This document shows, in pieces, positions 25,345 to 54,817 of a stretch of 64,000 bases of DNA (position 1 is the stretch's first letter; each line of letters starts with the position of its first letter). A program made the translations under genes and the position numbers. This stretch comes from Escherichia phage WG01. The stretch lies in sequence record NC_031928.1; one strand, written 5' to 3'. Under the pieces are notes generated by a model. That model worked only from the letters and a program-made list of their open reading frames with translations, made no database searches and was not told the DNA's origin.

Positions 25345-27468
25345 CTACATTTTGAATTTATTTGATAAAGAAGAGATATCCAAAGACGCTGCAAGGATTT
25401 CCATAGCCTCGTTGCTTTCAGAAACAGATTCATTAACCAAGAATTGACTGAACCCATCCATCAGGCGAACTTCACCAGTTTCCATCAAATGGTCACCATC
25501 GTAAACAGATTCGCTGAGCTCTGAAGGAGGTGTTACGGTAGCTTCCATAAGGTATTTGTGAGATACTCTATCATTCATGGCAAAAGCCGCTACTTTATCA
25601 ACCTTCAACAATAATCCACGCGGAAGGATAATTTCTGCTTCTTCGGCATATTCTGTAAGGTCACCAGGAGCGATAACTTTAACTGCTTCAGCACCTCGAA
25701 TAACCATACCAATTTCAGCAATTCTATCTGCAGGACCTTCAGGTGCAATTGGATTACCAAACTCGTCTTCTTCCCATTCTACCTCTTCGTCATCGACTTC
25801 ACCTACATCAGATGAACTACCACTAGCCAATTTAAACAACTCATCAGCGGAGGATAAAGAACCTTCACCGCCAACAAAAACGGCTTGGTTGTCGAGGGCC
25901 ATATAATTTTTACCAAATTCACCAAAGATGTTAGGTTTTAGTGAGGCTGACACAAAGTTCTTAAAGTAAAATGTTTTGTTATCGATATTATGGCGCAGAA
26001 TTTTGTATGGCAAATCCTGACCACGATACAAAATAGTACCCTTAGGAAGTTTAATACCCTTAGTAAATGCCGAGTCTAAATCCTTAATCAATTTAATAGC
26101 CGTTGTATTGTTTTCGGATTCAGGTTTACCTAAAAGGAATAAGTTCATAGGAGCATATTCAGCCGCGCAATATTCAATAATAGCATTGCTTTCGTCTTTG
26201 GTTAGGTCCTTAGGTTTAATGAGCTCGCCTGAATAAGCATATGCATCACTAATAGAATCGTTAACCAGTTTATAAACGGCTTCCATAGCGAAAGCAATTC
26301 TAGATGCTTTCTCTGAAGGGGAACCCTTAAAACGGGTACTCAGGTTATTAACAATTTTCTTAATAATATCCAGACTATTGGTTGTATTGATTTGCGAAAG
26401 GCCACTTAAAAGTCTATCGACTTCTGTATTAAAAAATGCCATATTATTAGAGTAAATTTCAAACCCTTGTTTATCTCTATTAGCATAATTTAGTTTAAAT
26501 TTACTATCAGTCATTAAAGCGTGTGTGAGAGCAATAGTGTATCTAAAGTTGGCAAGGTCCTCGCTCTTAGATTTAAACTGAGAAGCCTGACGCATTTTAG
26601 TAATGGCACCTTTTTTAAAGTTCTGACTAATCTGTTCAATACCTTCGTTCTCAGGGCCTTCAGCCGTGTGAACCGGTACAGAAGCTTCAAACTCGTTATA
26701 AACCTGCAATTCTTTAGGGGACAAAGTTTCAGGCTCAGCAGTAGAATACTGCGCCGCCGCTGCCATACGACGCGAAATCTTAGTACGAGTAATGACAGCC
26801 TTATCAGTACGTTTCTCTTCAACTTGTGCAATAGATGCCGCTACGGCTTCGACCTTACTTACAGCCTGGCCGGTTTTCTTAGAAACATACACTTCGCCAA
26901 CTTTAGACTCAACTTTAGTATAAAGATCGGCATTAATTTCAGGCATACCCTTGATATCTTCAATATTAGCACCACGACGTACTAAAAGAACGTAGGTATG
27001 TTTTCCGCTGAATTGGAACATGTCGTCAACAACTTTAAACTTACCACCGGTACGAGCCATAGCCAAGCGAGCTAATACGCGCTGAACGGTAGGACCTTTA
27101 CCTTTCATTTTCTTGGTAGGGAACCGGAAAAGAACTGCATCCATTTTAAGTTTGTTTACTTGTTCGTATACAGTATCAAAAATGGTATTCAGCGTACCAA
27201 GTGGGTCAGAACCTAACCCACCTTTCAACTCGGCTGGGCTACCCTTAGCAGACAAACTCATCAAAATAACATGAACATATTTGTCGCCCGGCTTAACCAT
27301 TTTAATAGCGTCTCCTTGAGACGCATAAGATACCATACGAGCAACCAGATTATCATTACCTGGTGCTTGGATAGAGAAAATCTGTGGAATACCGGAACCC
27401 GGTTTAAGATTTGTTACTGGATAGTTTTTAGCGGAATCACTATCAAAAACCTCATTTAAATTTTCCAT
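25345..27468 (-). CDS. alt: Alt-like ADP-ribosyltransferase, paralog 1
   Basis: 707 aa; conserved N-terminal ~230 aa shared with the two neighbours; C-terminal ART-like motifs YRGQ, FVSASL, EAEIILPRG. Confidence 0.85.
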   Translation of the reverse strand: MENLNEVFDSDSAKNYPVTNLKPGSGIPQIFSIQAPGNDNLVARMVSYASQGDAIKMVKPGDKYVHVILMSLSAKGSPAELKGGLGSDPLGTLNTIFDTVYEQVNKLKMDAVLFRFPTKKMKGKGPTVQRVLARLAMARTGGKFKVVDDMFQFSGKHTYVLLVRRGANIEDIKGMPEINADLYTKVESKVGEVYVSKKTGQAVSKVEAVAASIAQVEEKRTDKAVITRTKISRRMAAAAQYSTAEPETLSPKELQVYNEFEASVPVHTAEGPENEGIEQISQNFKKGAITKMRQASQFKSKSEDLANFRYTIALTHALMTDSKFKLNYANRDKQGFEIYSNNMAFFNTEVDRLLSGLSQINTTNSLDIIKKIVNNLSTRFKGSPSEKASRIAFAMEAVYKLVNDSISDAYAYSGELIKPKDLTKDESNAIIEYCAAEYAPMNLFLLGKPESENNTTAIKLIKDLDSAFTKGIKLPKGTILYRGQDLPYKILRHNIDNKTFYFKNFVSASLKPNIFGEFGKNYMALDNQAVFVGGEGSLSSADELFKLASGSSSDVGEVDDEEVEWEEDEFGNPIAPEGPADRIAEIGMVIRGAEAVKVIAPGDLTEYAEEAEIILPRGLLLKVDKVAAFAMNDRVSHKYLMEATVTPPSELSESVYDGDHLMETGEVRLMDGFSQFLVNESVSESNEAMEILAASLDISSLSNKFKM

Positions 27469-27471
27469 TAT

Positions 27472-29553
27472 TTACCCTTGGATGAATTTTTCTGGGATGT
27501 CATAGAGGTCTATGCATGAAGCCAAAAGAGGCAGTACATCAAACCGTGTAGATTTAACAAATGAATCAAAAGATAAGGGGCTTTCGGAAGTATCGAAGTC
27601 ATCTTGATATACGACCAACTCGCCGGTTTCCATTAGTACATCACCATCATATACCACAGATTCTTGAAGCTCATCTGTTGTCATAACTTCAGCTTGAATG
27701 AGTTTTGTATTACTAGATGTTGTTCCATCATTATTAGAAGCATCTGTTATTTTATTAACTTTGACCATTAATCCACGCGGTAGAATAACTTCAGCTTCAG
27801 TTGCTATTCCGAGATTTCCTGGATATACGACATTAACTTTATGGGCCCCATCAATAGCCCATCCTATTTGAACTTTAACATAATCAGGATTTTCTTTATA
27901 TGCTCTTATTTCATTAGGATTAATAGTTATTCCTTCTTCATTTTTATCAACTGTCAATTCGTTGCGAACTTCCGGTTCTAAAAGACCAATACCAGCGTGC
28001 GTAACACCAAAACGTCCGAAAATTATAGGAGTTAAAGAAGTAGATACAAAATTTCTAAAATAAAACACTTTATTTTTAACTAGTGCTTCGTATATAGGAG
28101 CAGTCATACTCTGGGCACGATAAACTGTAATGCCTTCCGGTATACGGTCACCATTTTCAAAAGCTGAATCTAAATTATTTACAGCGGATTCGATATCTTT
28201 TTCGCTCATAACCTCATAGTTCTGAGGATTATAACGTCCTAAAAGAAGATTATTTATGTCTGTATATCCTGAACCACAATATTCTCTGATACCACGCTTT
28301 TGTGATGGAGTATATTTAGAACCTTCACGAGCAATAGTAATATCAACCATAATACCACCACCCACACCAGCAAAACTATACACGCGTTTTTTAATGAACT
28401 TAGTCTTGGCTGCTTTCCACTTGGCCTCTGTCAATTCGTTCCAAAGGTCATCAGGTTGGCCTTTACGAGTTCTGTTATGGATAGCCAGCCACTCGCCTTT
28501 ATATTCTTCGAAAATGGTATTAATAGCAGAGGCATATTTTTCTAGAGCTTTAACAGATGTCAAAGGTTCGTTTTTTATTGCTGTAAGAATTTTCTCTTTA
28601 ATTTTCTCTTGGATTTCACCAATACCGTGAAGTGGGAACAATTTATAGTCGTAATGCAATTCTTCAGCAGTGCCTTCAGCTACTATATTAGCAACCTTAT
28701 TTTTAGCCGCAGGAGAATTGTTATTAGTAACCATTTCCTGAGCCTCAGGGATTAATGGAACTGTTGCCGGTTTATTAAAATCCGCTGCAGTAGCTTCATA
28801 TTTCTTAAACAATTCACTTTCATTACGATAAGATTCCAATGATTGGCTTGCTGCAATGGCGCGCCTAGAAATCTTAGTCTTGGTTATAACCATTTTATCA
28901 GTGCGACGTTCTTCAACCTTAGCAATACTACCGGCGATAGCAGTTTCTTTAGTAACCTGCACGCCTTCTTTTTTAGAAATATAAACTTCACCGACATCAG
29001 AATCTACCTTAGTATACAATTCAGCATTAATTCCAGGCATACCTTTGATATCTTCTATATCAGCTTGTTTACGAACTACCAGGATGTAAGTATGTTTACC
29101 GGTAAATTGGTACATAGCCGGAACTACTTTAAAACGTCCACCTGTTTTCTGTGCTACCAAACGTTGGATAATCCGTTGAACGATAGGGCCTTGACCTTTC
29201 ATTTTCTTAGTAGGGAAACGGAACATCACGGCATCCATACGAAGCTTTTTAACCTGTTCGAATACTACGTCGAAAATGGTATTAATAGCATCAATAGGAG
29301 TAGGGCCTAAGCCACCTTTAAGTTCTGCTGGAGTACCTTTAGCTGAAAGGCTCATAAGGATAACGTGGGCATATTTATCACCCATCTTAACCTGTTTAAT
29401 AGCATCGCCTTCAGAAGCATAGGATACCATACGTGCTACTAACTGAGACTCCGCGTCTCCAATCTTCCAAATCTGAGGTACTTTAAGTTTTGGGTTCAAG
29501 TTCACAACAGGCAGTGTACCTTCGGACTCGAACACTTCATTTAATTGGGTCAT
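27472..29553 (-). CDS. alt: Alt-like ADP-ribosyltransferase, paralog 2
   Basis: 693 aa; same architecture; motifs YRAQ, FVSTSL, EAEVILPRG. Confidence 0.85.
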   Translation of the reverse strand: MTQLNEVFESEGTLPVVNLNPKLKVPQIWKIGDAESQLVARMVSYASEGDAIKQVKMGDKYAHVILMSLSAKGTPAELKGGLGPTPIDAINTIFDVVFEQVKKLRMDAVMFRFPTKKMKGQGPIVQRIIQRLVAQKTGGRFKVVPAMYQFTGKHTYILVVRKQADIEDIKGMPGINAELYTKVDSDVGEVYISKKEGVQVTKETAIAGSIAKVEERRTDKMVITKTKISRRAIAASQSLESYRNESELFKKYEATAADFNKPATVPLIPEAQEMVTNNNSPAAKNKVANIVAEGTAEELHYDYKLFPLHGIGEIQEKIKEKILTAIKNEPLTSVKALEKYASAINTIFEEYKGEWLAIHNRTRKGQPDDLWNELTEAKWKAAKTKFIKKRVYSFAGVGGGIMVDITIAREGSKYTPSQKRGIREYCGSGYTDINNLLLGRYNPQNYEVMSEKDIESAVNNLDSAFENGDRIPEGITVYRAQSMTAPIYEALVKNKVFYFRNFVSTSLTPIIFGRFGVTHAGIGLLEPEVRNELTVDKNEEGITINPNEIRAYKENPDYVKVQIGWAIDGAHKVNVVYPGNLGIATEAEVILPRGLMVKVNKITDASNNDGTTSSNTKLIQAEVMTTDELQESVVYDGDVLMETGELVVYQDDFDTSESPLSFDSFVKSTRFDVLPLLASCIDLYDIPEKFIQG

Positions 29554-29561
29554 AATCTATC

Positions 29562-31457
29562 CTATTTAAATAAATTTGCTAATTTTTCCATAGAATCTTC
29601 ATACATAATTCTATCATAATTTCCAAACGAGAATCCGGTGCTATATGAATTTTCCTCTGTGATTTGCTCGGTAGCTACAACTTCACATTCCACTAAAACA
29701 TATTTACCAATTGAACCCATAGGTCCCTTGGAAGCACCGTATACTTTATTAATCTTAAGCATAACCCCACGAGGAAGAATTACTTCGGTTTCTGTAGACC
29801 AATTAGCCAAGTCACCGGGCACAATAACCTTAATTTTATCAGCACCTTTAATAATTAACCCTAGCTTAATGGTATCTCTAGCACTTCCGGTCGCACTTTT
29901 AATGGTGTCTTCAAGATTACTATCTATATCGCTAGAAAGAGCTTCAGGGTCTAAGTTGGATTGAGCATGACCCATTTCACCGAAAATATTAGGAGCCAAT
30001 GAAGTTGATGCAAAAATAGGAAGATACATCACCTTATGTTTTATAGAATTCAAAGCCATTTCGGTAGGCATTATCTGAGAACGATACACTATGGTTCCTT
30101 TAGGAAGTTTTGTACCATTTTCAAATGTAGAATCCAACTCACCAATCATTTTTATCATTTCATCGGTGGTATCTGTTTTACCTAGCAAAAAGTTGTTTAT
30201 ATGGTTGTAGCCGCCACGAGTATACTTTTTGACTGCCTCTTCTTGAGGTTTGGATAAATTAGGATTATCAGATATCTTAAACAACGGTTGGATAGATTTT
30301 GTATAAACTGCTACTAAGGATTTTATTACTTCCTTGATTTTAGATTCTCTAGCCCAAGTACCTTTAACTGAATCATCTAAAAGGGCCGCAGCGACTAGTC
30401 TAAGAATGTCTACATGAGATTTACCTGATTTTAAAGCCTCTATGACACTATTAGATTTATCTAAAGAATCTGATGCCTCTAAAGCAAACTTTATATCAGC
30501 AATTAGTTTAAGTTTGCGCTCGTCTACTTCAAATGATGGATTAACACCGTTAAAAATATAATCCAAATATTCTGCCATTTCTTTAGAGGCGTCTTTTAAT
30601 ATTTTATTACTGGCTAAAGCTATTTGGCTTTCTTTAGAATCTTCAGAAGAATGAACGGAACTAGTAGCAGAATAATCTGCATAAGCTTTTTTGTGCTCTG
30701 CCGAAAATTTACTCAATCCTGTAGGCTCGGCGGTAGAATATAACGCATTTATAGCGGCCCGTTTAGAAACCTTAGTCTTGGTTATAACCATTTTATCAGA
30801 ACGTGATTTTTCTATTTCGTCTATAGACTTAGCTATAGCTTCTAATTTGGTAACATCTTCGCCTGTTTTCTTTGAAACATACACATCACCGACTTCAGAT
30901 TCGACTTTAGTATACAATTCCGGATTAATATTAGGAATACCGTTTATTGATTCTATATTTTTATTTTTACGATAGATAAAAACATATGAATGTTTGCCTG
31001 TATATTGATACAAGGCATCAAGGACCTTGAATTGCCCACCTGCTCTAGTAGCTATTAATTTGGCTAGAACTCGTTGTACAGCTTTTTCCTGACCTTTCAT
31101 TTTCTTAGTAGGAAAACGGAACATAACGGCATCCATACGGAGCTTTTTAACTTGTTCATAAACCGTATCAAATATAGAACGAATAGCGGAAATGGGGTTA
31201 CTACCTAAACCACCTTTGAGTTCTGCCGGGGCCCCTTTAGATGATAGGCTCATTAAAATAATATGAACGTATTTGTCACCCGGTTTAACTTGGCGGATTG
31301 TATCACCTTCAGAAGTATATGAAACCATGCGTGCAACAAGGTTCTCATTACCTTCAGCCTTTATATTCCAAATCTGTGGTACTTTAAGTTTAGGGTTTAA
31401 ATTGACAGCTGATAAATCTATAGCGCCGTCAAATACCTCATTCAATTGTTCGGACAT
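29562..31457 (-). CDS. alt: Alt-like ADP-ribosyltransferase, paralog 3
   Basis: 631 aa; motifs YRSQ, FASTSL, ETEVILPRG; SD AAGAGGAA. Confidence 0.85.
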   Translation of the reverse strand: MSEQLNEVFDGAIDLSAVNLNPKLKVPQIWNIKAEGNENLVARMVSYTSEGDTIRQVKPGDKYVHIILMSLSSKGAPAELKGGLGSNPISAIRSIFDTVYEQVKKLRMDAVMFRFPTKKMKGQEKAVQRVLAKLIATRAGGQFKVLDALYQYTGKHSYVFIYRKNKNIESINGIPNINPELYTKVESEVGDVYVSKKTGEDVTKLEAIAKSIDEIEKSRSDKMVITKTKVSKRAAINALYSTAEPTGLSKFSAEHKKAYADYSATSSVHSSEDSKESQIALASNKILKDASKEMAEYLDYIFNGVNPSFEVDERKLKLIADIKFALEASDSLDKSNSVIEALKSGKSHVDILRLVAAALLDDSVKGTWARESKIKEVIKSLVAVYTKSIQPLFKISDNPNLSKPQEEAVKKYTRGGYNHINNFLLGKTDTTDEMIKMIGELDSTFENGTKLPKGTIVYRSQIMPTEMALNSIKHKVMYLPIFASTSLAPNIFGEMGHAQSNLDPEALSSDIDSNLEDTIKSATGSARDTIKLGLIIKGADKIKVIVPGDLANWSTETEVILPRGVMLKINKVYGASKGPMGSIGKYVLVECEVVATEQITEENSYSTGFSFGNYDRIMYEDSMEKLANLFK

Positions 31458-31485
31458 AATAATTCCTCTTTAATAACCTTATTTA

Positions 31486-35550: not shown

Positions 35551-35916
35551 TTAGATGTCGAATTCGTTCAGAACTACATCAAAGATTGCTTCCAGGTGTT
35601 CAGGTTTAGCTCGGTTGCTCAGGATGTGACGAATCCAAGTTTTAACCAGAAGCTTACGATTAACACCGTTCCAGCAAGGATGGGTACCTAAATCACGTTG
35701 ACGGAAATCATCATCTAAAGCGATTTTAAAAGTAGAACCTTCCATTGTGATTGAAACCGTAATACCATTTTCAAAGCGCATATAAACGTAGTTAGGAGTC
35801 ATGCACTGTTCGATTTCGCACACTGTACCGTTTTCGTGTTTCCACAGGCAAATAACTTCGGAAGAACCAGCGATACCGTTAGAAACATATTTACGTTCGA
35901 AGTTGATGTAGTTCAT
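35551..35916 (-). CDS. hypothetical protein (121 aa)
   Basis: Internal ATG 35916 preceded by CTGGAGAATAAAA and a promoter cassette repeated upstream of the next gene. Confidence 0.5.
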   Translation of the reverse strand: MNYINFERKYVSNGIAGSSEVICLWKHENGTVCEIEQCMTPNYVYMRFENGITVSITMEGSTFKIALDDDFRQRDLGTHPCWNGVNRKLLVKTWIRHILSNRAKPEHLEAIFDVVLNEFDI

Positions 35917-35949
35917 TTTTATTCTCCAGTTTGTTTTCGTATTATTTGG

Positions 35950-35990
35950 TACAGGTCTATAATAACACAACCTGTACCAAAGTAAAACAT
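35950..35990 (-). promoter_or_regulatory. early promoter cassette (copy G)
   Basis: -10 TATTATAGACC then leader GTACCAAATAATACGAAAACAAACTGGAGAATAAAA. Confidence 0.45.
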
Positions 35991-36323
35991 TTATTTCACG
36001 ACATTCCAATTTTTCATATCAAGTTTACCAACTTTTTTCATCTGAGCAATCAGACGTTCAGCGCGTGTACGGGCATTAACATAATAGAATTCACCATTTT
36101 TGTTTTCTTCAATACGACCAGTAATTACAGTTTTCAGTTCATAAATCCAACCTGTAAAGAAGTTGTGAAGCTCGATGGTGAATGTAAAATCAGTACCCAT
36201 ACCTTCAGTTGTTTCAACTTCGATGATATCACCTTCAACTGCAGTCAGGACCCACATGGTTTCTTGATATTCACCGTTGAAACATTTAGCTTTAACAGAT
36301 GCATTCAGATTTACAGTTTTCAT
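35991..36323 (-). CDS. hypothetical protein (110 aa)
   Basis: ATG 36323 preceded by CTGGAGAATAAA and a promoter cassette. Confidence 0.5.
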   Translation of the reverse strand: MKTVNLNASVKAKCFNGEYQETMWVLTAVEGDIIEVETTEGMGTDFTFTIELHNFFTGWIYELKTVITGRIEENKNGEFYYVNARTRAERLIAQMKKVGKLDMKNWNVVK

Positions 36324-36354
36324 TTTATTCTCCAGTTTGTTTTAGTATTATTTG

Positions 36355-36395
36355 GTACATGTCTATAGTATCACGCCTACCGGAGATGTATACCC
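36355..36395 (-). promoter_or_regulatory. early promoter cassette (copy F)
   Basis: Extended -10 TGATACTATAGAC then same leader as copy G. Confidence 0.45.
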
Positions 36396-42757: not shown

Positions 42758-43245
42758 TTGGTAATAATCTCGATGATGTCATCACGTGACAGGGAATTAA
42801 TAAGAACCGTTTTAGGATTTTCACACTGAATTTTATACGTTTCAAACATAAAACATAATTCTTCAGCAGTATGGTAAGGACTTGAAATGCCAAGGCGATT
42901 AAACTTGTCGCTTAATGGGTCGCAAATCAAATAGAACGTGATGCCTGAGATTTTAACATTAGGTTGGCTAATATTAATAAACACCTCGGCATCGTATTTG
43001 GAAAGGTTGTTTTGGAGAAACTCGACCATAGAGTTAACAGCTTGAGGCATTGCTTCACGCTTTTCTTCAGCGTAACGGGTAGAGTATTCTTTTTGCTTGA
43101 TTTTCTTTTTAGCATTTTTAGCTAAAGTAACACGAAGATCGGTCAGGTAACCTACTGCACGAGAACCTTTAAAAACTTGGATGCCGTCAGTAGAGTCACC
43201 AAAAGCCTTAACAACCATTTCGTTAGTAATCATTTGCATATTCAT
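42745..43245 (-). CDS. hypothetical protein (166 aa), positionally equivalent to T4 alc
   Basis: ATG 43245 with SD GAGGAGAAAA and early promoter cassette; size and position as T4 alc but sequence not recognised. Confidence 0.45.
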   Translation of the reverse strand: MNMQMITNEMVVKAFGDSTDGIQVFKGSRAVGYLTDLRVTLAKNAKKKIKQKEYSTRYAEEKREAMPQAVNSMVEFLQNNLSKYDAEVFINISQPNVKISGITFYLICDPLSDKFNRLGISSPYHTAEELCFMFETYKIQCENPKTVLINSLSRDDIIEIITKCLN

Positions 43246-43264
43246 TTTGTTTTCTCCTCATTAG

Positions 43265-43305
43265 TTGGTAAGTCTATACTAACACGTCATGAGGAGATGT
43301 AAACT
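43265..43305 (-). promoter_or_regulatory. early promoter cassette (copy E)
   Basis: -35 GTTTAC, -10 TAGTATAGAC, leader TTACCAACTAATGAGGAGAAAA. Confidence 0.5.
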
Positions 43306-48798: not shown

Positions 48799-50484
<1,686 letters not shown>

Positions 50485-50499
50485 TTTATTCTCCTTAGT

Positions 50500-50540
50500 T
50501 GATAAGGCTATAGTATCACTACCATAGCCTGGTGTAAACT
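50500..50540 (-). promoter_or_regulatory. early promoter cassette (copy B)
   Basis: -35 GTTTAC, extended -10 TGATACTATAG, leader CCTTATCAACTAAGGAGAATAAA. Confidence 0.55.
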
Positions 50541-50767
50541 TATTTTTGAATTAGGCCCATATAAAATTTAGCGTCTTCCGGGTGCATACCGTCACAATAC
50601 TCGTCAGCCATAAAGCGGGTAAGGTCTTCAAGAGGACCTTGGACTTCAATTTGCATACTACAGAATTGAGTATCTTTAATATGGGTCATAACTAAAGAAG
50701 GATAACGATTACGGATAACTTCGTAAGTGTATTCAAAATCAACGATATCAATATTAACCTTAGCCAT
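50540..50767 (-). CDS. hypothetical protein (75 aa)
   Basis: Internal ATG 50767 with SD GAGGAAAA and own promoter cassette. Confidence 0.5.
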
Positions 50768-50789
50768 TTTATTTTCCTCACTCATTAGT

Positions 50790-50830
50790 TGATAGGTCTA
50801 TAGTATCATGTTTAAAGGCGTTGTAAACAT
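50790..50830 (-). promoter_or_regulatory. early promoter cassette (copy C)
   Basis: -35 GTTTAC, -10 TGATACTATAGACC, leader TATCAACTAATGAGTGAGGAAAATAAA. Confidence 0.55.
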
Positions 50831-51091
50831 TTATTTTTGAATTTTATCAAGCCATTTACCAAGTTTAATCATTTCTTTGGTAGCTTTTTCCATACTTCTA
50901 AATTTAACCAGTAAAGGTTGGGCATCAACACCCATAACTAAGGTGGTTACAAGACTATGTTCACCTACAAGCCATAATGAATAAGTTTGGATATCGAGCC
51001 CGTAATTTCGGTCTTTATGAACTCGTACACCCATCACTTCAAATTTCTCACTGGCTTTTTCTACTGCATCCAGGAAATCATCTTTAGTCAT
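50831..51091 (-). CDS. hypothetical protein (86 aa)
   Basis: ATG 51091 one nt after upstream stop (TAATATG). Confidence 0.45.
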   Translation of the reverse strand: MTKDDFLDAVEKASEKFEVMGVRVHKDRNYGLDIQTYSLWLVGEHSLVTTLVMGVDAQPLLVKFRSMEKATKEMIKLGKWLDKIQK

Positions 51092-51092
51092 A

Positions 51093-51482
51093 TTAGGCCT
51101 TAAAAGTTTTTTGCAAAAGTTCAATGATTTGGTCAACGTTCTGTTCGGTGACAATGCAATGGATTTGAGTCACACCGGCCTTAGCAATAGGCTCATCGAT
51201 TTCTTTATCTTCCACAACATATTCACAGAAGCAATAGAACTCATCTTCATGCAACTCAAAATAATTTGGCACCAACCCAAATGCATTATAAATCTCGCCA
51301 TTTGCACATTCGATTTCAGTCACAAATTTGTCGCCATCCATAGTCAACATATCCTTTACTTCAAACCAACCTCCGTTGTCTTGGATAAGGTCGACCATGC
51401 TTTTATTATTTTCATATTCGTCCATTTCAATAAAGTCTTTAATGCATTCAGGACGAAGTTCATAAGTTTTACCGATTTCCAT
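51093..51482 (-). CDS. hypothetical protein (129 aa)
   Basis: ATG 51482 with SD GAGGAAA and own promoter cassette. Confidence 0.5.
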   Translation of the reverse strand: MEIGKTYELRPECIKDFIEMDEYENNKSMVDLIQDNGGWFEVKDMLTMDGDKFVTEIECANGEIYNAFGLVPNYFELHEDEFYCFCEYVVEDKEIDEPIAKAGVTQIHCIVTEQNVDQIIELLQKTFKA

Positions 51483-51504
51483 TTTATTTCCTCATCTATT
51501 AGTT

Positions 51505-51545
51505 GATAGGTCTATAGTATCACGTTTAAAGGCGTTGTAAACCAT
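51505..51545 (-). promoter_or_regulatory. early promoter cassette (copy D)
   Basis: Nearly identical to copy C. Confidence 0.55.
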
Positions 51546-51594
51546 TAAATGCCAAAAAGGGAAGACCGAAGTCTTCCCATTATAAATCAATAAC

Positions 51595-52500
51595 TTATAG
51601 ACCAGCTAACAGGTCGTCCAGACCATCGTCATCAGAAGGACTTACTGACGGCTCAGGAGTAGTGGAACGAGTCGGTGTAGATGGTTTAGAATCATATGCA
51701 TCAAGGTCTGCACTGAATGCGTCCAGGTCATCACCAATCTTATCAGCGGCTGCAGAAGCTTTAGCGGCAGCACCACCAAGAGCAGCTGTACCAACAACTT
51801 TCTTAAACTTGGCTTCGTTAGTTTCGAATGATTTGAAATCGAGCAGTTTAGAAAGGTCGTGCATTTCTTCCATCAATTTAGCTTGGTAAGCTTCATCATT
51901 GATGTTAGGAATTTCAGACTGACCCATGAATTTGGAATCGTCATAGTTCTTGAAGTCGCCAACTTTCTTAGATTTCAGTACGAAGTTCGCACCATCAAAC
52001 GGACATGTTACGTCAACCGGCACTTCACCAATATCGGTATCAACTTCAACCATCTGGTTGATTTTATCCATAATTTTCTGACCGAAACGGAATTTAAACA
52101 CTTTACCTTCGTTAGCAGGCACTGCACTATCCTTAATAACAAGGATGTTAGCCCAGAAGGAAGTTTTACGTTTCATCAGTTTGTATTCGGCATTATTAGT
52201 ATTAAAGGTATCATTCTGGTTCATGTATTTACATACAGGACATGAATCGAAATCACCGTGTGTAGACGTACAGTTTTCAATGTACCATTGACCATTTTTC
52301 TTAAAGCCGTGGTTAACGAGCTTAATGAATGGAGATGGATTTTCTTCGTTTTTCGAAGGTAGGAAACGAATTACCGCAGTACCAACGCCATTGTCATCTT
52401 TCAATTTCCATTCAGCTTTATCATCGGAAGAGAAAGAAGAACCACCTTTCATTGCAGACAGTTGAGCAGCCAGTTGGGAAGGGTCTTTACGTTTAAACAT
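51595..52500 (-). CDS. 32: single-stranded DNA-binding protein
   Basis: 301 aa (same as T4 gp32); MFKRK...RFLPSK...[13 protein letters not shown] matches recollection; acidic C-terminus. Confidence 0.95.
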
Positions 52501-54750: not shown

Positions 54751-54817
54751 ATGAACCTCTGTCCAATTAGTGTAGAGGTTCATTATATCACGACCCTAGA
54801 AGAAGTAAACACTTTGC

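Follow-up and report, generated by a model that had tools for sequence, protein, structure and literature searches.

Promoter-early stem-loop (PeSL) cassettes of T4-like phages, modules that aid the shuffling of small genes, have been described in RB49 and phi1 (Arbiol et al. 2010, PMC2839356) and also in T4/PST and KVP40/nt-1 (Comeau et al. 2014, PMC4122927). Their stem-loops often lie between the -35 and -10 elements or overlap the -10, with G-T pairs allowed, and crossovers have been mapped, in RB49 mini-circles, between the -10 and the SD or ATG (PMC2839356, PMC4122927). The early promoters of T4 belong to the 'uber' UP/-35/TGn/-10 class (Hinton 2010, PMC2988021; Nolan et al. 2006, PMC1524935), and the translation-initiation regions of early T4 genes contain RegB/S1 cleavage sites, for which the strong consensus is GG*AGRAYARAA (Uzan & Miller 2010, PMC3014915). 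The window, that is, the whole stretch of 64,000 nucleotides analysed here, derives from a Dhakavirus, a T4 relative similar to JS98. Three cassettes located between gene 32 and frd, termed D, C and B, are, judging from their sequences, most likely strong sigma70 early promoters with a short leader and a T4-type RBS, and would represent the Dhakavirus version of the PeSL cassettes. The idea of portable modules is not new, being that of the published PeSL model (PMC2839356, PMC4122927).

Organisation of the gene 32-frd interval

On the minus strand the gene order of the interval is gene 32, frd.2, orf86, frd.3, frd.1 and frd. The upstream neighbour, gene 32 (51595..52500, minus strand), is a 301-aa ORF annotated in relatives as the ssDNA-binding protein gp32. 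It is followed by an intrinsic terminator (51553..51578, minus strand) consisting of the hairpin GGGAAGACTTCGGTCTTCCC and a T-run, which provides a stem-loop upstream of cassette D; the terminator scan assigned it a stem of 8 bp (5 GC) followed by TTTTT, and it is kept in all 15 Dhakavirus loci compared. The frd.2 homologue of unknown function (51093..51482, minus strand, 129 aa) matches Pfam PF03197 FRD2 (E = 2.5e-35). The ATG of the 86-aa ORF, orf86 (50831..51091, minus strand; phrog_4423, E = 1e-49), is located one base past the frd.2 stop codon, and because of this one-base gap the two genes are probably translationally coupled. The frd.3 homologue (50540..50767, minus strand, 75 aa; Pfam PF05798, E = 1.7e-38), also of unknown function, and the frd.1 homologue (50245..50484, minus strand, 79 aa; DUF5417, Pfam PF17438, E = 4e-35), likewise of no known function, precede frd (49656..50236, minus strand), which is annotated as dihydrofolate reductase in relatives. 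The gene content of the interval is variable among Dhakaviruses. Since the small ORFs behind D, C and B belong to unrelated protein families according to Pfam, the repetition is confined to the regulatory DNA. No terminator was predicted between cassette D and td in the terminator scan, and read-through from each of the three promoters is therefore predicted to reach frd downstream. Literature searches yielded nothing usable on the function or start sites of frd.1, frd.2 and frd.3, on JS98 early promoters or on T4 start-site mapping, nor any Dhakavirus transcript or reporter data.

Anatomy of cassettes D, C and B

The original prediction of minus-strand cassettes ahead of small ORFs holds for all three copies, in each of which the -35, spacer, -10 and ATG could be mapped. 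All of them show the predicted GTTTAC, a spacer of 17-18 nt and an extended -10 (TGA-TACTAT, agreeing with TGn and TAnnnT), followed by an SD and the ATG. Cassette D (51483..51542, minus strand) has its -35 GTTTAC at 51542-51537 and, after a TGn, its -10 TACTAT at 51519-51514, the 17-nt spacer ending in TGA. Its predicted +1 is at ~51507, the SD GAGG (51493-51490) precedes the frd.2 ATG at 51482, and the cassette precedes both frd.2 and the 86-aa ORF. The part upstream of its promoter is made up of the terminator T-run and GGCATTTAATG. Cassette C (50768..50843, minus strand) carries the A-rich AAATTCAAAAATAA, a -35 at 50828-50823, a 17-nt spacer, a -10 at 50805-50800, a predicted +1 at ~50793 and the SD GAGGAAAA ahead of the frd.3 ATG at 50767; the final codons of orf86 (IQK*) form its A-rich upstream part. 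Cassette B (50485..50552, minus strand) carries the A-rich AATTCAAAAATAA, which overlaps the frd.3 stop codon, a -35 at 50539-50534, an 18-nt spacer, a -10 at 50515-50510 and a predicted +1 at ~50503, with the frd.1 ATG at 50484. AATTCAAAAATAA is common to B and C, lying at about -50 to -38 and overlapping the last codons of the upstream ORF.

The 3' ends of the cassettes, with SD and start codon, read GAGGAAATAAAATG (D), GAGGAAAATAAAATG (C) and GGAGAATAAAATG (B). With start sites predicted from the distance to the -10 alone, the 5' UTRs of the three cassettes are only 19-26 nt in length. None of them has a MotA box, the hallmark of a middle promoter: TGCTT is absent at -30 and the -35 region is GTTTAC.

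A genome-wide family of probable early promoters

The repeats are genuine and far above chance, with three exact matches (zero mismatches) to TGATACTATAGNCYTATCAACTAA against 0.00 expected from shuffles and four matches to the -35/extended -10 pattern against 0.21 expected. The description of the three cassettes as near-identical is correct for the pair C and D, which are 94% identical from -35 to ATG (63-64 nt; family median 64%), in line with the claimed near-identity over about 60 nt, and which differ at a single base across the first 44 nt. It is not correct for B, whose identity to C and D is only 71-75%; unlinked family members with -35 elements at 43304 and 9534 are equally close (73-78%). 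B is an ordinary family member, and only C and D are near-identical.

Copies of the cassette are not limited to the gene 32-frd interval. The window contains at least 11 such promoters, namely D, C, B and at least eight others on the same strand (-35 at 54810, 43304, 39572, 36393, 35987, 25345, 13557 and 9534), and those at 36393 and 35987 make up another similar pair (81% identical, 406 bp apart). The proposed BLAST comparison with relatives did return repeated copies, but these are not specific to the interval, as a 79-nt probe from C matched each Dhakavirus genome at 14-17 places. The family-wide consensus is RTGnTAcTAT-AGACCTAyCAAc. In the information profile of the 11 window promoters, C occupies -3 in 10 of the 11 and T occupies -1 in all of them, and the profile contains the features listed for T4-type early promoters (PMC1524935, PMC2988021): GTTTAC at -36 to -31, TGn, T at -7, A at -11, an A-rich region in the -40s and C-rich positions -3 to -1. 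The consensus together with the homology to T4 suggests that host RNA polymerase would start at D, C and B straight after infection. With no terminator from D to td, transcripts would accumulate downstream, and frd.1, frd and td would be fed by three promoters.

Leader conservation and a predicted RegB/S1 site

Conservation had been proposed to run past the promoter into the leader, beyond what promoter consensus could explain. Since the predicted 5' UTRs are so short, most of this leader conservation would be family-wide promoter consensus. The stretch from -6 to ~+5 (AGACCTAyCAAc) is conserved throughout the early-promoter class of this phage, and the SD-proximal stretch is a standard T4-type translation start, so that the proposal is only partly right, identity beyond the class consensus being confined to the C-D spacer. 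AGACCTAyCAAc may be seen as the discriminator, the start site and the beginning of the transcript, common to the class, rather than as a separate RNA element. The SD-proximal part would act as the translation start and, in B, also as the site of a predicted RegB/S1 cut silencing frd.1 after the early period.

This predicted RegB/S1 site, GGAGAATAAAA (50484..50494, minus strand), lies in the frd.1 SD-to-ATG stretch, outside the B hairpin described below, and matches GGAGRAYARAA perfectly. The consensus has three matches in the window against 0.39 expected, all of which adjoin start codons; the three GGAGAATAAAA sites belong to cassette B and to the cassettes at 36393 and 35987. C and D contain GAGGAAA(A)TAAAA without GGAG and hence are not canonical RegB sites. 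A RegB homologue (59.5% identity) is present in Dhakavirus CLB_P2, and tblastn with T4 RegB found none within the 64-kb window. An Rfam scan of 50000-52000 gave no match at E <= 1.

Hairpins in and around the promoters

A hairpin showing compensatory changes is located inside cassette B (50505..50530, minus strand; MFE -15.6 kcal/mol, z = -3.4). Its 5' arm AGGCTATGGTA lies in the spacer, its loop is GTGA and its 3' arm TACTATAGCCT comprises the -10 hexamer and the discriminator; as no U-run follows, it is not a canonical terminator. RNA folding gave no hairpin for C of the window (MFE -1.8 kcal/mol, z = -0.4) and likewise -1.8 kcal/mol for D. The JS98-type allele of C forms a 10-bp stem (-15.4 kcal/mol, z = -5.0), and the hairpin-forming cassettes range from -14 to -18.8 kcal/mol with z from -3.2 to -5.5. 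In a covariation test on related sequences, from which the tested structure was itself derived, 84.6% of cells were paired as compared to 27-48% in slid controls, four pairs showed compensatory change and 0 of 500 shuffles was as good. The hairpin of the T4 frd.1 promoter (-15.9 kcal/mol, z = -3.8 in its own fold) is off by one base in the register of this alignment and was counted as largely unpaired. Across several T4-like genera, hairpins of the spacer, -10 and discriminator are kept by compensatory changes, with G-U wobbles on the sense strand only.

The B hairpin, built from spacer, -10 and discriminator, would exist in read-through RNA or single-stranded DNA only and would probably act as an attenuator or RNA-end stabiliser. 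The gene 32 terminator would serve as the stem-loop of D, and that of C appears to have been lost. A different pairing is seen in the alc cassette at 43304, where CTCCTCAT in the promoter spacer is complementary to the cassette's own SD ATGAGGAG, a pairing predicted to be possible in read-through RNA only. In the T4 genes e and soc, hairpins hide the RBS in read-through transcripts but not in transcripts from the promoter inside the hairpin. These resemble the alc cassette in that SD pairing is predicted in read-through RNA only, whereas the internal promoter in the window is early, not late, and B, C and D leave the SD free. It is a doubtful proposition that spacer/-10 hairpins are a general device for telling read-through RNA from locally initiated RNA, beyond terminator-like insulators. 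If so, read-through RNA would carry an attenuating, processed, 3'-end-protecting or (in alc) SD-sequestering element that RNA from the embedded promoter would be without, and gene conversion between cassettes, as in C of this lineage, could toggle hairpin control gene by gene.

Probable gene conversion of the C spacer

C and D have 16 of their 17 spacer bases in common, at positions that are of low information family-wide. The C spacer is D-like in the window, E33, PSD9, QL01, MX01, LHE83 and ABTNLsp5, a partial hybrid (atctgctttaaaca) in IME08, KIT01 and C6, and the hairpin-forming aaggtctataggca in JS98, MN04, dhaeg and dhabil. C of the window departs from the spacers of related lineages at several clustered positions; against the JS98-type allele it shows five clustered differences, all of them matching D, between nearly invariant flanks. 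As the Gaprivervirus promoters ahead of frd.3 carry the GGTCTAT/ATAGACC arms too, the hairpin allele of C would be the ancestral one. The presence of the D spacer in the clade of the window and of the hairpin C spacer in related lineages implies that the C-D identity is derived, the spacer of D having apparently overwritten that of C through gene conversion between cassettes 714 bp apart. Two identical promoters are present at the gene 32-frd locus also in L027, which belongs to a second genus.

The distances used were those within Dhakavirus (0.4-6.9%), together with the tree topology among those phages; ungapped distances of 36-42% to UGJNEcP3 and the Gaprivervirus loci were set aside as register artefacts caused by indels. 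A hybrid origin of the D leader of the window (caactaaTAGatgagg, also present in MX01) from the C leader was considered but not relied on, the pattern being too short.

Module shuffling among relatives

The order and copy number of the promoter-gene modules differ between T4, Dhakavirus and Gaprivervirus, as the suggested synteny comparison brought out, and permuted modules, every boundary having its promoter, occur in T4, Dhakavirus, VR20, VR25 and IME341. Cassette positions are conserved in the 15 Dhakaviruses compared, with the sole exception of B in LHE83, which is replaced exactly, from the upstream A-rich (UP-like) edge to the SD, by promoter cassettes of Gaprivervirus type. In LHE83 the junctions fall, in addition, at the ends of the frd.3 and frd.1 coding sequences, which are conserved. 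Ordinary homologous recombination of co-infecting phages, with no special role of the cassette, would explain this event, and so would co-conversion from the homing endonuclease encoded beside gene 32 in LHE83. Two of the four indel types in the interval, a 113-aa ORF before frd and a 68-aa ORF before td, are without a promoter at the junction, and a pattern search of IMG/VR found no natural D/C deletion product (gene 32 terminator, one hybrid cassette and frd.3).

The original prediction that the repeats could act as portable modules and as homology for recombination is backed by the C spacer conversion, the module permutations and the replacement of B in LHE83. Near-identical stretches of 45-95 nt across the genome would be substrates for homologous exchange, by which the C spacer may have been overwritten here and modules in relatives reordered, duplicated or replaced at cassette edges.

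Alternative explanations

The cassettes might reflect promoter consensus only (UP, -35, TGn, -10 and start site) and have no role in recombination or shuffling. The class-wide consensus, which spans -35, TGn, -10 and -6 to +5, agrees with this reading, as do the position of B, no nearer to C and D than unlinked promoters, the interval indels without promoters and the description of T4 early promoters with 'additional regions of consensus' (review, PMC2988021). The C/D spacer sequence at issue here is AACGCCTTTAAAC. However, low-information spacers in the family sit poorly with 16 of 17 bases common to C and D, and D agrees with C at all five clustered differences from the JS98-type allele, between near-invariant flanks. 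The two identical promoters in L027, from a second genus, and the differing module order of close relatives, with a promoter at every boundary, argue in the same direction, and we consider it unlikely that consensus is the whole explanation.

It is very improbable that the leader is a transcribed cis-regulatory RNA element, either a repressor or nuclease site or a riboswitch-like structure. The perfect strong RegB/S1 match adjoining the ATG of B, the RegB homologue encoded by Dhakaviruses and, common to the leaders, AUCAACUAA and an A-rich stretch from SD to AUG would fit such an element, but leaders of 19-26 nt, the lack of an Rfam match at E <= 1, the absence of a significant fold in C and D and of GGAG from both of them do not. 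Moreover, transcription is predicted to start downstream of the conserved AGACC, and the shared motif is found also in promoters of unrelated window genes including the alc, rnh, 30.7 and 30.8 homologues. The direct C and D repeats, separated by 714 bp, and a similar pair at 36393/35987 (81% identical, 406 bp apart) might instead be what is left of a small mobile element or a recent tandem segmental duplication, and not functional regulatory modules. The ORFs behind C, D and B come from different protein families, which leaves no duplicated segment, and the interval contains no transposase, terminal inverted repeats or target duplications. As positions are kept across 15 Dhakaviruses but for B of LHE83, with equivalents in T4, such an origin seems extremely remote.

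Comparison with known systems

The preferred reading, that of early promoters forming a Dhakavirus version of the PeSL cassettes, extends the PeSL picture to a fourth T4-like branch, the Dhakavirus (JS98) group, and adds a clean, datable case of one cassette partly overwriting another 714 bp off together with multi-genus module reordering at one locus. It may be of use in annotating the early transcription units of therapeutic Dhakaviruses and in understanding swaps of small accessory genes. It raises no new question, as mechanism and concept are already in print.

Like PeSL cassettes, those of the window combine an A/T-rich stretch and a sigma70-type early promoter with the SD and start codon of a small ORF whose function is unknown. 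They are clustered and repeated genome-wide, and relatives differ at them by indels, replacements and reordering. The apparent exchange points at the locus (the A-rich edge; the -10 to SD/ATG region) agree with the RB49 mini-circle map. The stem-loop of the published cassettes has a counterpart inside the promoter in B (-15.6 kcal/mol), is provided in D only by the gene 32 terminator and is absent from C. The genus also differs, since for the Dhakavirus group the cited papers mention only 'PeSL-like sequences' of JS98 near gene 43. The -35 is GTTTAC here, as in T4, and TTGACA in RB49, and the stems, which take in the -10 hexamer, are rich in A/U, in contrast to the GGGG/CCCC stems of RB49.

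With the T4 early promoters the cassettes share the GTTTAC -35, TGn, TAnnnT, the A-rich upstream region, C residues at -3 to -1 and the placement ahead of early-gene orthologues and novel small ORFs. The same locus of T4 contains homologous promoter-like sequences, one past the gene 32 terminator and another in front of frd.1, the latter with the same TGATACTAT and the same type of hairpin as cassette B. The window phage differs in its -10 consensus, TACTAT and not TATAAT, in the stronger conservation of AGACCTAyCAAc after the -10 and in gene order (frd.2-orf86-frd.3-frd.1 as compared to frd.3-frd.2-frd.1 in T4). As regards the RegB/S1 sites of T4, C and D are without GGAG and no regB is present in the window; the sites in B and in the cassettes at 36393 and 35987 are perfect matches at the expected location, ending at the start codon, and are candidates for cleavage.

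Organisation of the 32-frd interval

The 3-kb interval between gene 32 and frd is 99.5% identical to that of Escherichia phage vB_EcoM-E33 and 91-98% identical to those of QL01, PSD9, IME08, JS10 and JS98; all six, E33 included, are members of Dhakavirus, T4-like Tevenvirinae. All features of the interval lie on the minus strand. Gene 32 (52500-51595) is followed by an intrinsic terminator located by a terminator scan (51578-51559 plus a T-run), by cassette D, by frd.2 (129 aa, Pfam FRD2) and by an 86-aa ORF (orf86) whose own ATG lies one base past the frd.2 stop codon. Cassette C then precedes frd.3 (75 aa, Pfam Phage_FRD3) and cassette B precedes frd.1 (79 aa, DUF5417), with frd and then td located downstream.

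The three cassettes share the layout GTTTAC, a 17-18 nt spacer ending in TGA, TACTAT, AG(A)CCT(A/T)TCAACTAA, a Shine-Dalgarno (SD) sequence, an A-rich stretch and ATG. Three exact copies of the 24-nt core TGATACTATAGNCYTATCAACTAA are present where dinucleotide shuffles predict none, confirming that the cassettes are real repeats, and the -35/extended -10 pattern has four matches against 0.21 expected. The original prediction of three near-identical copies holds for C and D, which share 94% identity between -35 and ATG, but B is only 71-75% identical to either and is an ordinary family member. Since the predicted 5' UTRs are only 19-26 nt long (D 25, C 26 and B 19 nt, for a start site 7 nt past the -10), the conserved leader is made up of two parts: one, comprising the discriminator, the start site and the earliest transcribed bases, is shared across the entire promoter class, and the other is the ribosome-binding site. 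The leader conservation noticed earlier is therefore mostly class-wide promoter and ribosome-binding-site consensus, and true excess similarity is confined to the C-D spacer. No Rfam match to the leaders was obtained (50000-52000 of the window, E <= 1), and no fold was found for C and D of the window (-1.8 kcal/mol, z near 0).

The leaders of C and D also contain an ATGAGG motif (50785 and 51494, respectively), which as ATGAGGA(G/A) is present in most family members. An in-frame ATG six codons upstream in the C leader would extend Frd.3 by MSEENK, a longer form annotated in some relatives, while the D leader holds a mini-ORF, ATG-AGG-AAA-TAA (MRK*), overlapping the frd.2 start.

A wider family of early promoters

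Eight further same-strand copies of this architecture are present in the window (-35 at 54810, 43304, 39572, 36393, 35987, 25345, 13557 and 9534), preceding rnh, alc, the T4 30.8 and 30.7 homologues and several small ORFs of unknown function. Wider occurrence was borne out by blastn with a 79-nt C probe, which detected 14-17 places per Dhakavirus genome. Alignment of the 11 window promoters on the -10 gives the consensus RTGnTAcTAT-AGACCTAyCAAc, with C at -3 in 10 and T at -1 in all 11. Logos for other T4-like phages show C at -3 to -1, A-rich -40s and the -35 GTTTAC (PMC1524935), and 'additional regions of consensus' besides UP, -35, TGn and -10 have been described for T4 early promoters (PMC2988021).

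The cassettes before the T4 30.8 and 30.7 homologues form a second neighbouring pair (35916-36393, minus strand), 406 bp apart, with 81% identity from -35 to ATG and 92% over a 52-nt stretch from the -10 region through a shared long leader. In the 35987 cassette the -10 is covered by a 12-bp hairpin (-18.8 kcal/mol, z = -5.5), of which the 36393 partner has a degraded version. In the cassette preceding alc (43245-43304, minus strand; Pfam ALC), the spacer TCTCCTCAT is complementary to the cassette's own SD region ATGAGGAGA (-16.4 kcal/mol, z = -3.5). Such pairing could hide the SD in read-through transcripts only; those begun at the cassette's own promoter would lack the 5' arm. Elsewhere in the window (25567-31468), three tandem units of about 2 kb (families D1, D2, D4, D9 and D17 of the repeat search) start 2094 and 1898 nt apart and match at 61-82% identity in several blocks; they presumably represent three paralogues.

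The translation start of B, GGAGAATAAAATG, contains GGAGAATAAAA, a perfect match to the strong RegB/S1 cleavage consensus GG*AGRAYARAA (PMC3014915). This consensus has three matches in the window against 0.39 expected, all on the minus strand and all abutting a start codon behind an early promoter; the other two are the 36393 and 35987 cassettes, both of which end in a perfect GGAGAATAAAA. GGAG is absent from C and D, which read GAGGAAA(A)TAAAATG. The Dhakavirus CLB_P2 encodes a RegB homologue (59.5% identity), and tblastn with T4 RegB detected none within the 64-kb window.

Stem-loops over the -10

Within B, AGGCTATGGTA of the spacer forms a stem with TACTATAGCCT, made up of the -10 hexamer and discriminator (-15.6 kcal/mol, z = -3.4). 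The T4 promoter before frd.1 has a similar hairpin of different sequence, GGGTAGTAGTG/TACTATTACCC (-15.9 kcal/mol, z = -3.8). In frd.3 promoters of the JS98 clade and Gapriverviruses GGTCTAT(AG) pairs with (CT)ATAGACC, and in a more distant lineage GGGTTAT pairs with ATAACCC. Across an alignment of 13 promoters, 84.6% of cells are paired, as compared to 27-48% for controls with the partner shifted by 1-3 columns; both-sided changes are seen in four pairs, and none of 500 shuffles reached the observed covariation. The wobbles are G-U on the sense strand. This covariation supports the structure but does not prove it, given that the aligned promoters are related and themselves served to define the pairing. 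Because the predicted start site is downstream of the 3' arm, the hairpin could form only in read-through RNA or single-stranded DNA, and as no U-run follows it, the B hairpin is not a canonical terminator. B has its own hairpin, D is supplied with one by the gene 32 terminator and C has none in the lineage of the window.

Similarity of cassettes C and D

Among 15 Dhakavirus loci, the D spacer is constant, aaNNcctttaaac(a/g)tga, and the C spacer has three alleles. A D-like allele (aaYgcctttaaaca) is found in the window, E33, PSD9, QL01, MX01, LHE83 and ABTNLsp5, an intermediate allele atctgctttaaaca in IME08, KIT01 and C6, and a hairpin-forming allele aaggtctataggca in JS98, MN04, dhaeg and dhabil, with a G-U variant in UGJNEcP3. 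The hairpin allele is ancestral, since its arm also occurs in Gaprivervirus frd.3 promoters and the phages with D-like and intermediate alleles group within one Dhakavirus clade on flanking coding sequence. In the clade of the window, five clustered spacer positions of C are changed, all to the D state, between almost invariant flanks. The simplest reading of these sequences is gene conversion of C by D, 714 bp upstream, with loss of the C stem-loop; the intermediate allele resembles a shorter conversion tract. Among the closest relatives, cassettes C and D are both polymorphic (C or T) at one shared spacer position, which suggests repeated exchange. In a T4-like relative of another genus (L027), the frd.3 and frd.1 promoters (752-816 and 1441-1500) share 44 identical nt that take in both hairpin arms (GGGTTAT/ATAACCC), an independent case of two homogenised cassettes of this locus. 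The C-D spacer similarity is thus best read as a recombination footprint.

Shuffling of modules among relatives

As the synteny comparison proposed in the original prediction bears out, the order of promoters (P) and genes varies: 32-P-frd.3-frd.2-P-frd.1 in T4, 32-P-frd.2-orf86-P-frd.3-P-frd.1 in the window and QL01, frd.2-P-frd.3-P-frd.2'-orf86-P-frd.1 in VR20 (frd.2', a frd.2 paralogue), P-frd.2'-orf86-P-frd.3-P-frd.1 in VR25 and frd.2-orf86-P-frd.3-P-frd.2'-P-frd.1 in IME341. In Dhakavirus LHE83, a segment with 90-94% identity to the VR20, IME341 and LQ5 group has replaced B and carries a hairpin promoter, a frd.2 paralogue and a second hairpin promoter. Its left junction falls within the final dozen bases of frd.3, at the onset of the A-rich part of B, and its right junction within GGAGAATAAAATG and the first eight codons of frd.1. 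These positions match the experimentally mapped crossover zones of RB49 mini-circles, an A/T-rich region and the -10 to SD/ATG (PMC2839356), although they also coincide with conserved gene ends. As a further caveat, a pattern search of IMG/VR yielded no natural D/C deletion product.

Two other indels of the interval also qualify the link between cassettes and exchange: a 113-aa ORF before frd and a 68-aa ORF before td have no promoter at their junctions, which lie at short SD-ATG similarity. The 113-aa ORF, located between frd.1 and frd, is present in C6 (L008, 2640-3000), JS98, ABTNLsp5 and dhaeg and absent from the window, whose junction TGAGGAAATTATG (50236-50250) reads as if the flanking SD-ATG regions TGAGGAAAATATAATG and TAAGGAATTAAAATG had been fused, therefore pointing to exchange at ribosome-binding-site microhomology with no promoter. 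The position immediately upstream of gene 32, held by gene 59 in the window, is taken up in LHE83 by a homing endonuclease gene (L007, 1-171), an arrangement resembling T4 segG, and in MX01 by a hypothetical gene (L013, 1-171). A homing endonuclease in this position could drive co-conversion of the interval, which would be another way to account for the LHE83 replacement.

Relation to PeSL cassettes

The proposal of portable modules and recombinational shuffling is supported by the comparative evidence and coincides with the published model of promoter-early stem-loop (PeSL) cassettes. D, C and B share with PeSLs the sigma70 early promoter, A-rich upstream region, SD and ATG at the 3' end, the placement ahead of small ORFs of unknown function within a variable interval and the association with exchanges. 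The PeSL stem-loop itself is present in B, is represented at D by the gene 32 terminator and is missing from C of the window's lineage. PeSL descriptions cover RB49/phi1, T4/PST and KVP40/nt-1, and name JS98 only for 'PeSL-like sequences' near gene 43 (PMC2839356, PMC4122927); the Dhakavirus 32-frd locus is therefore a new instance of PeSL and not a new kind.
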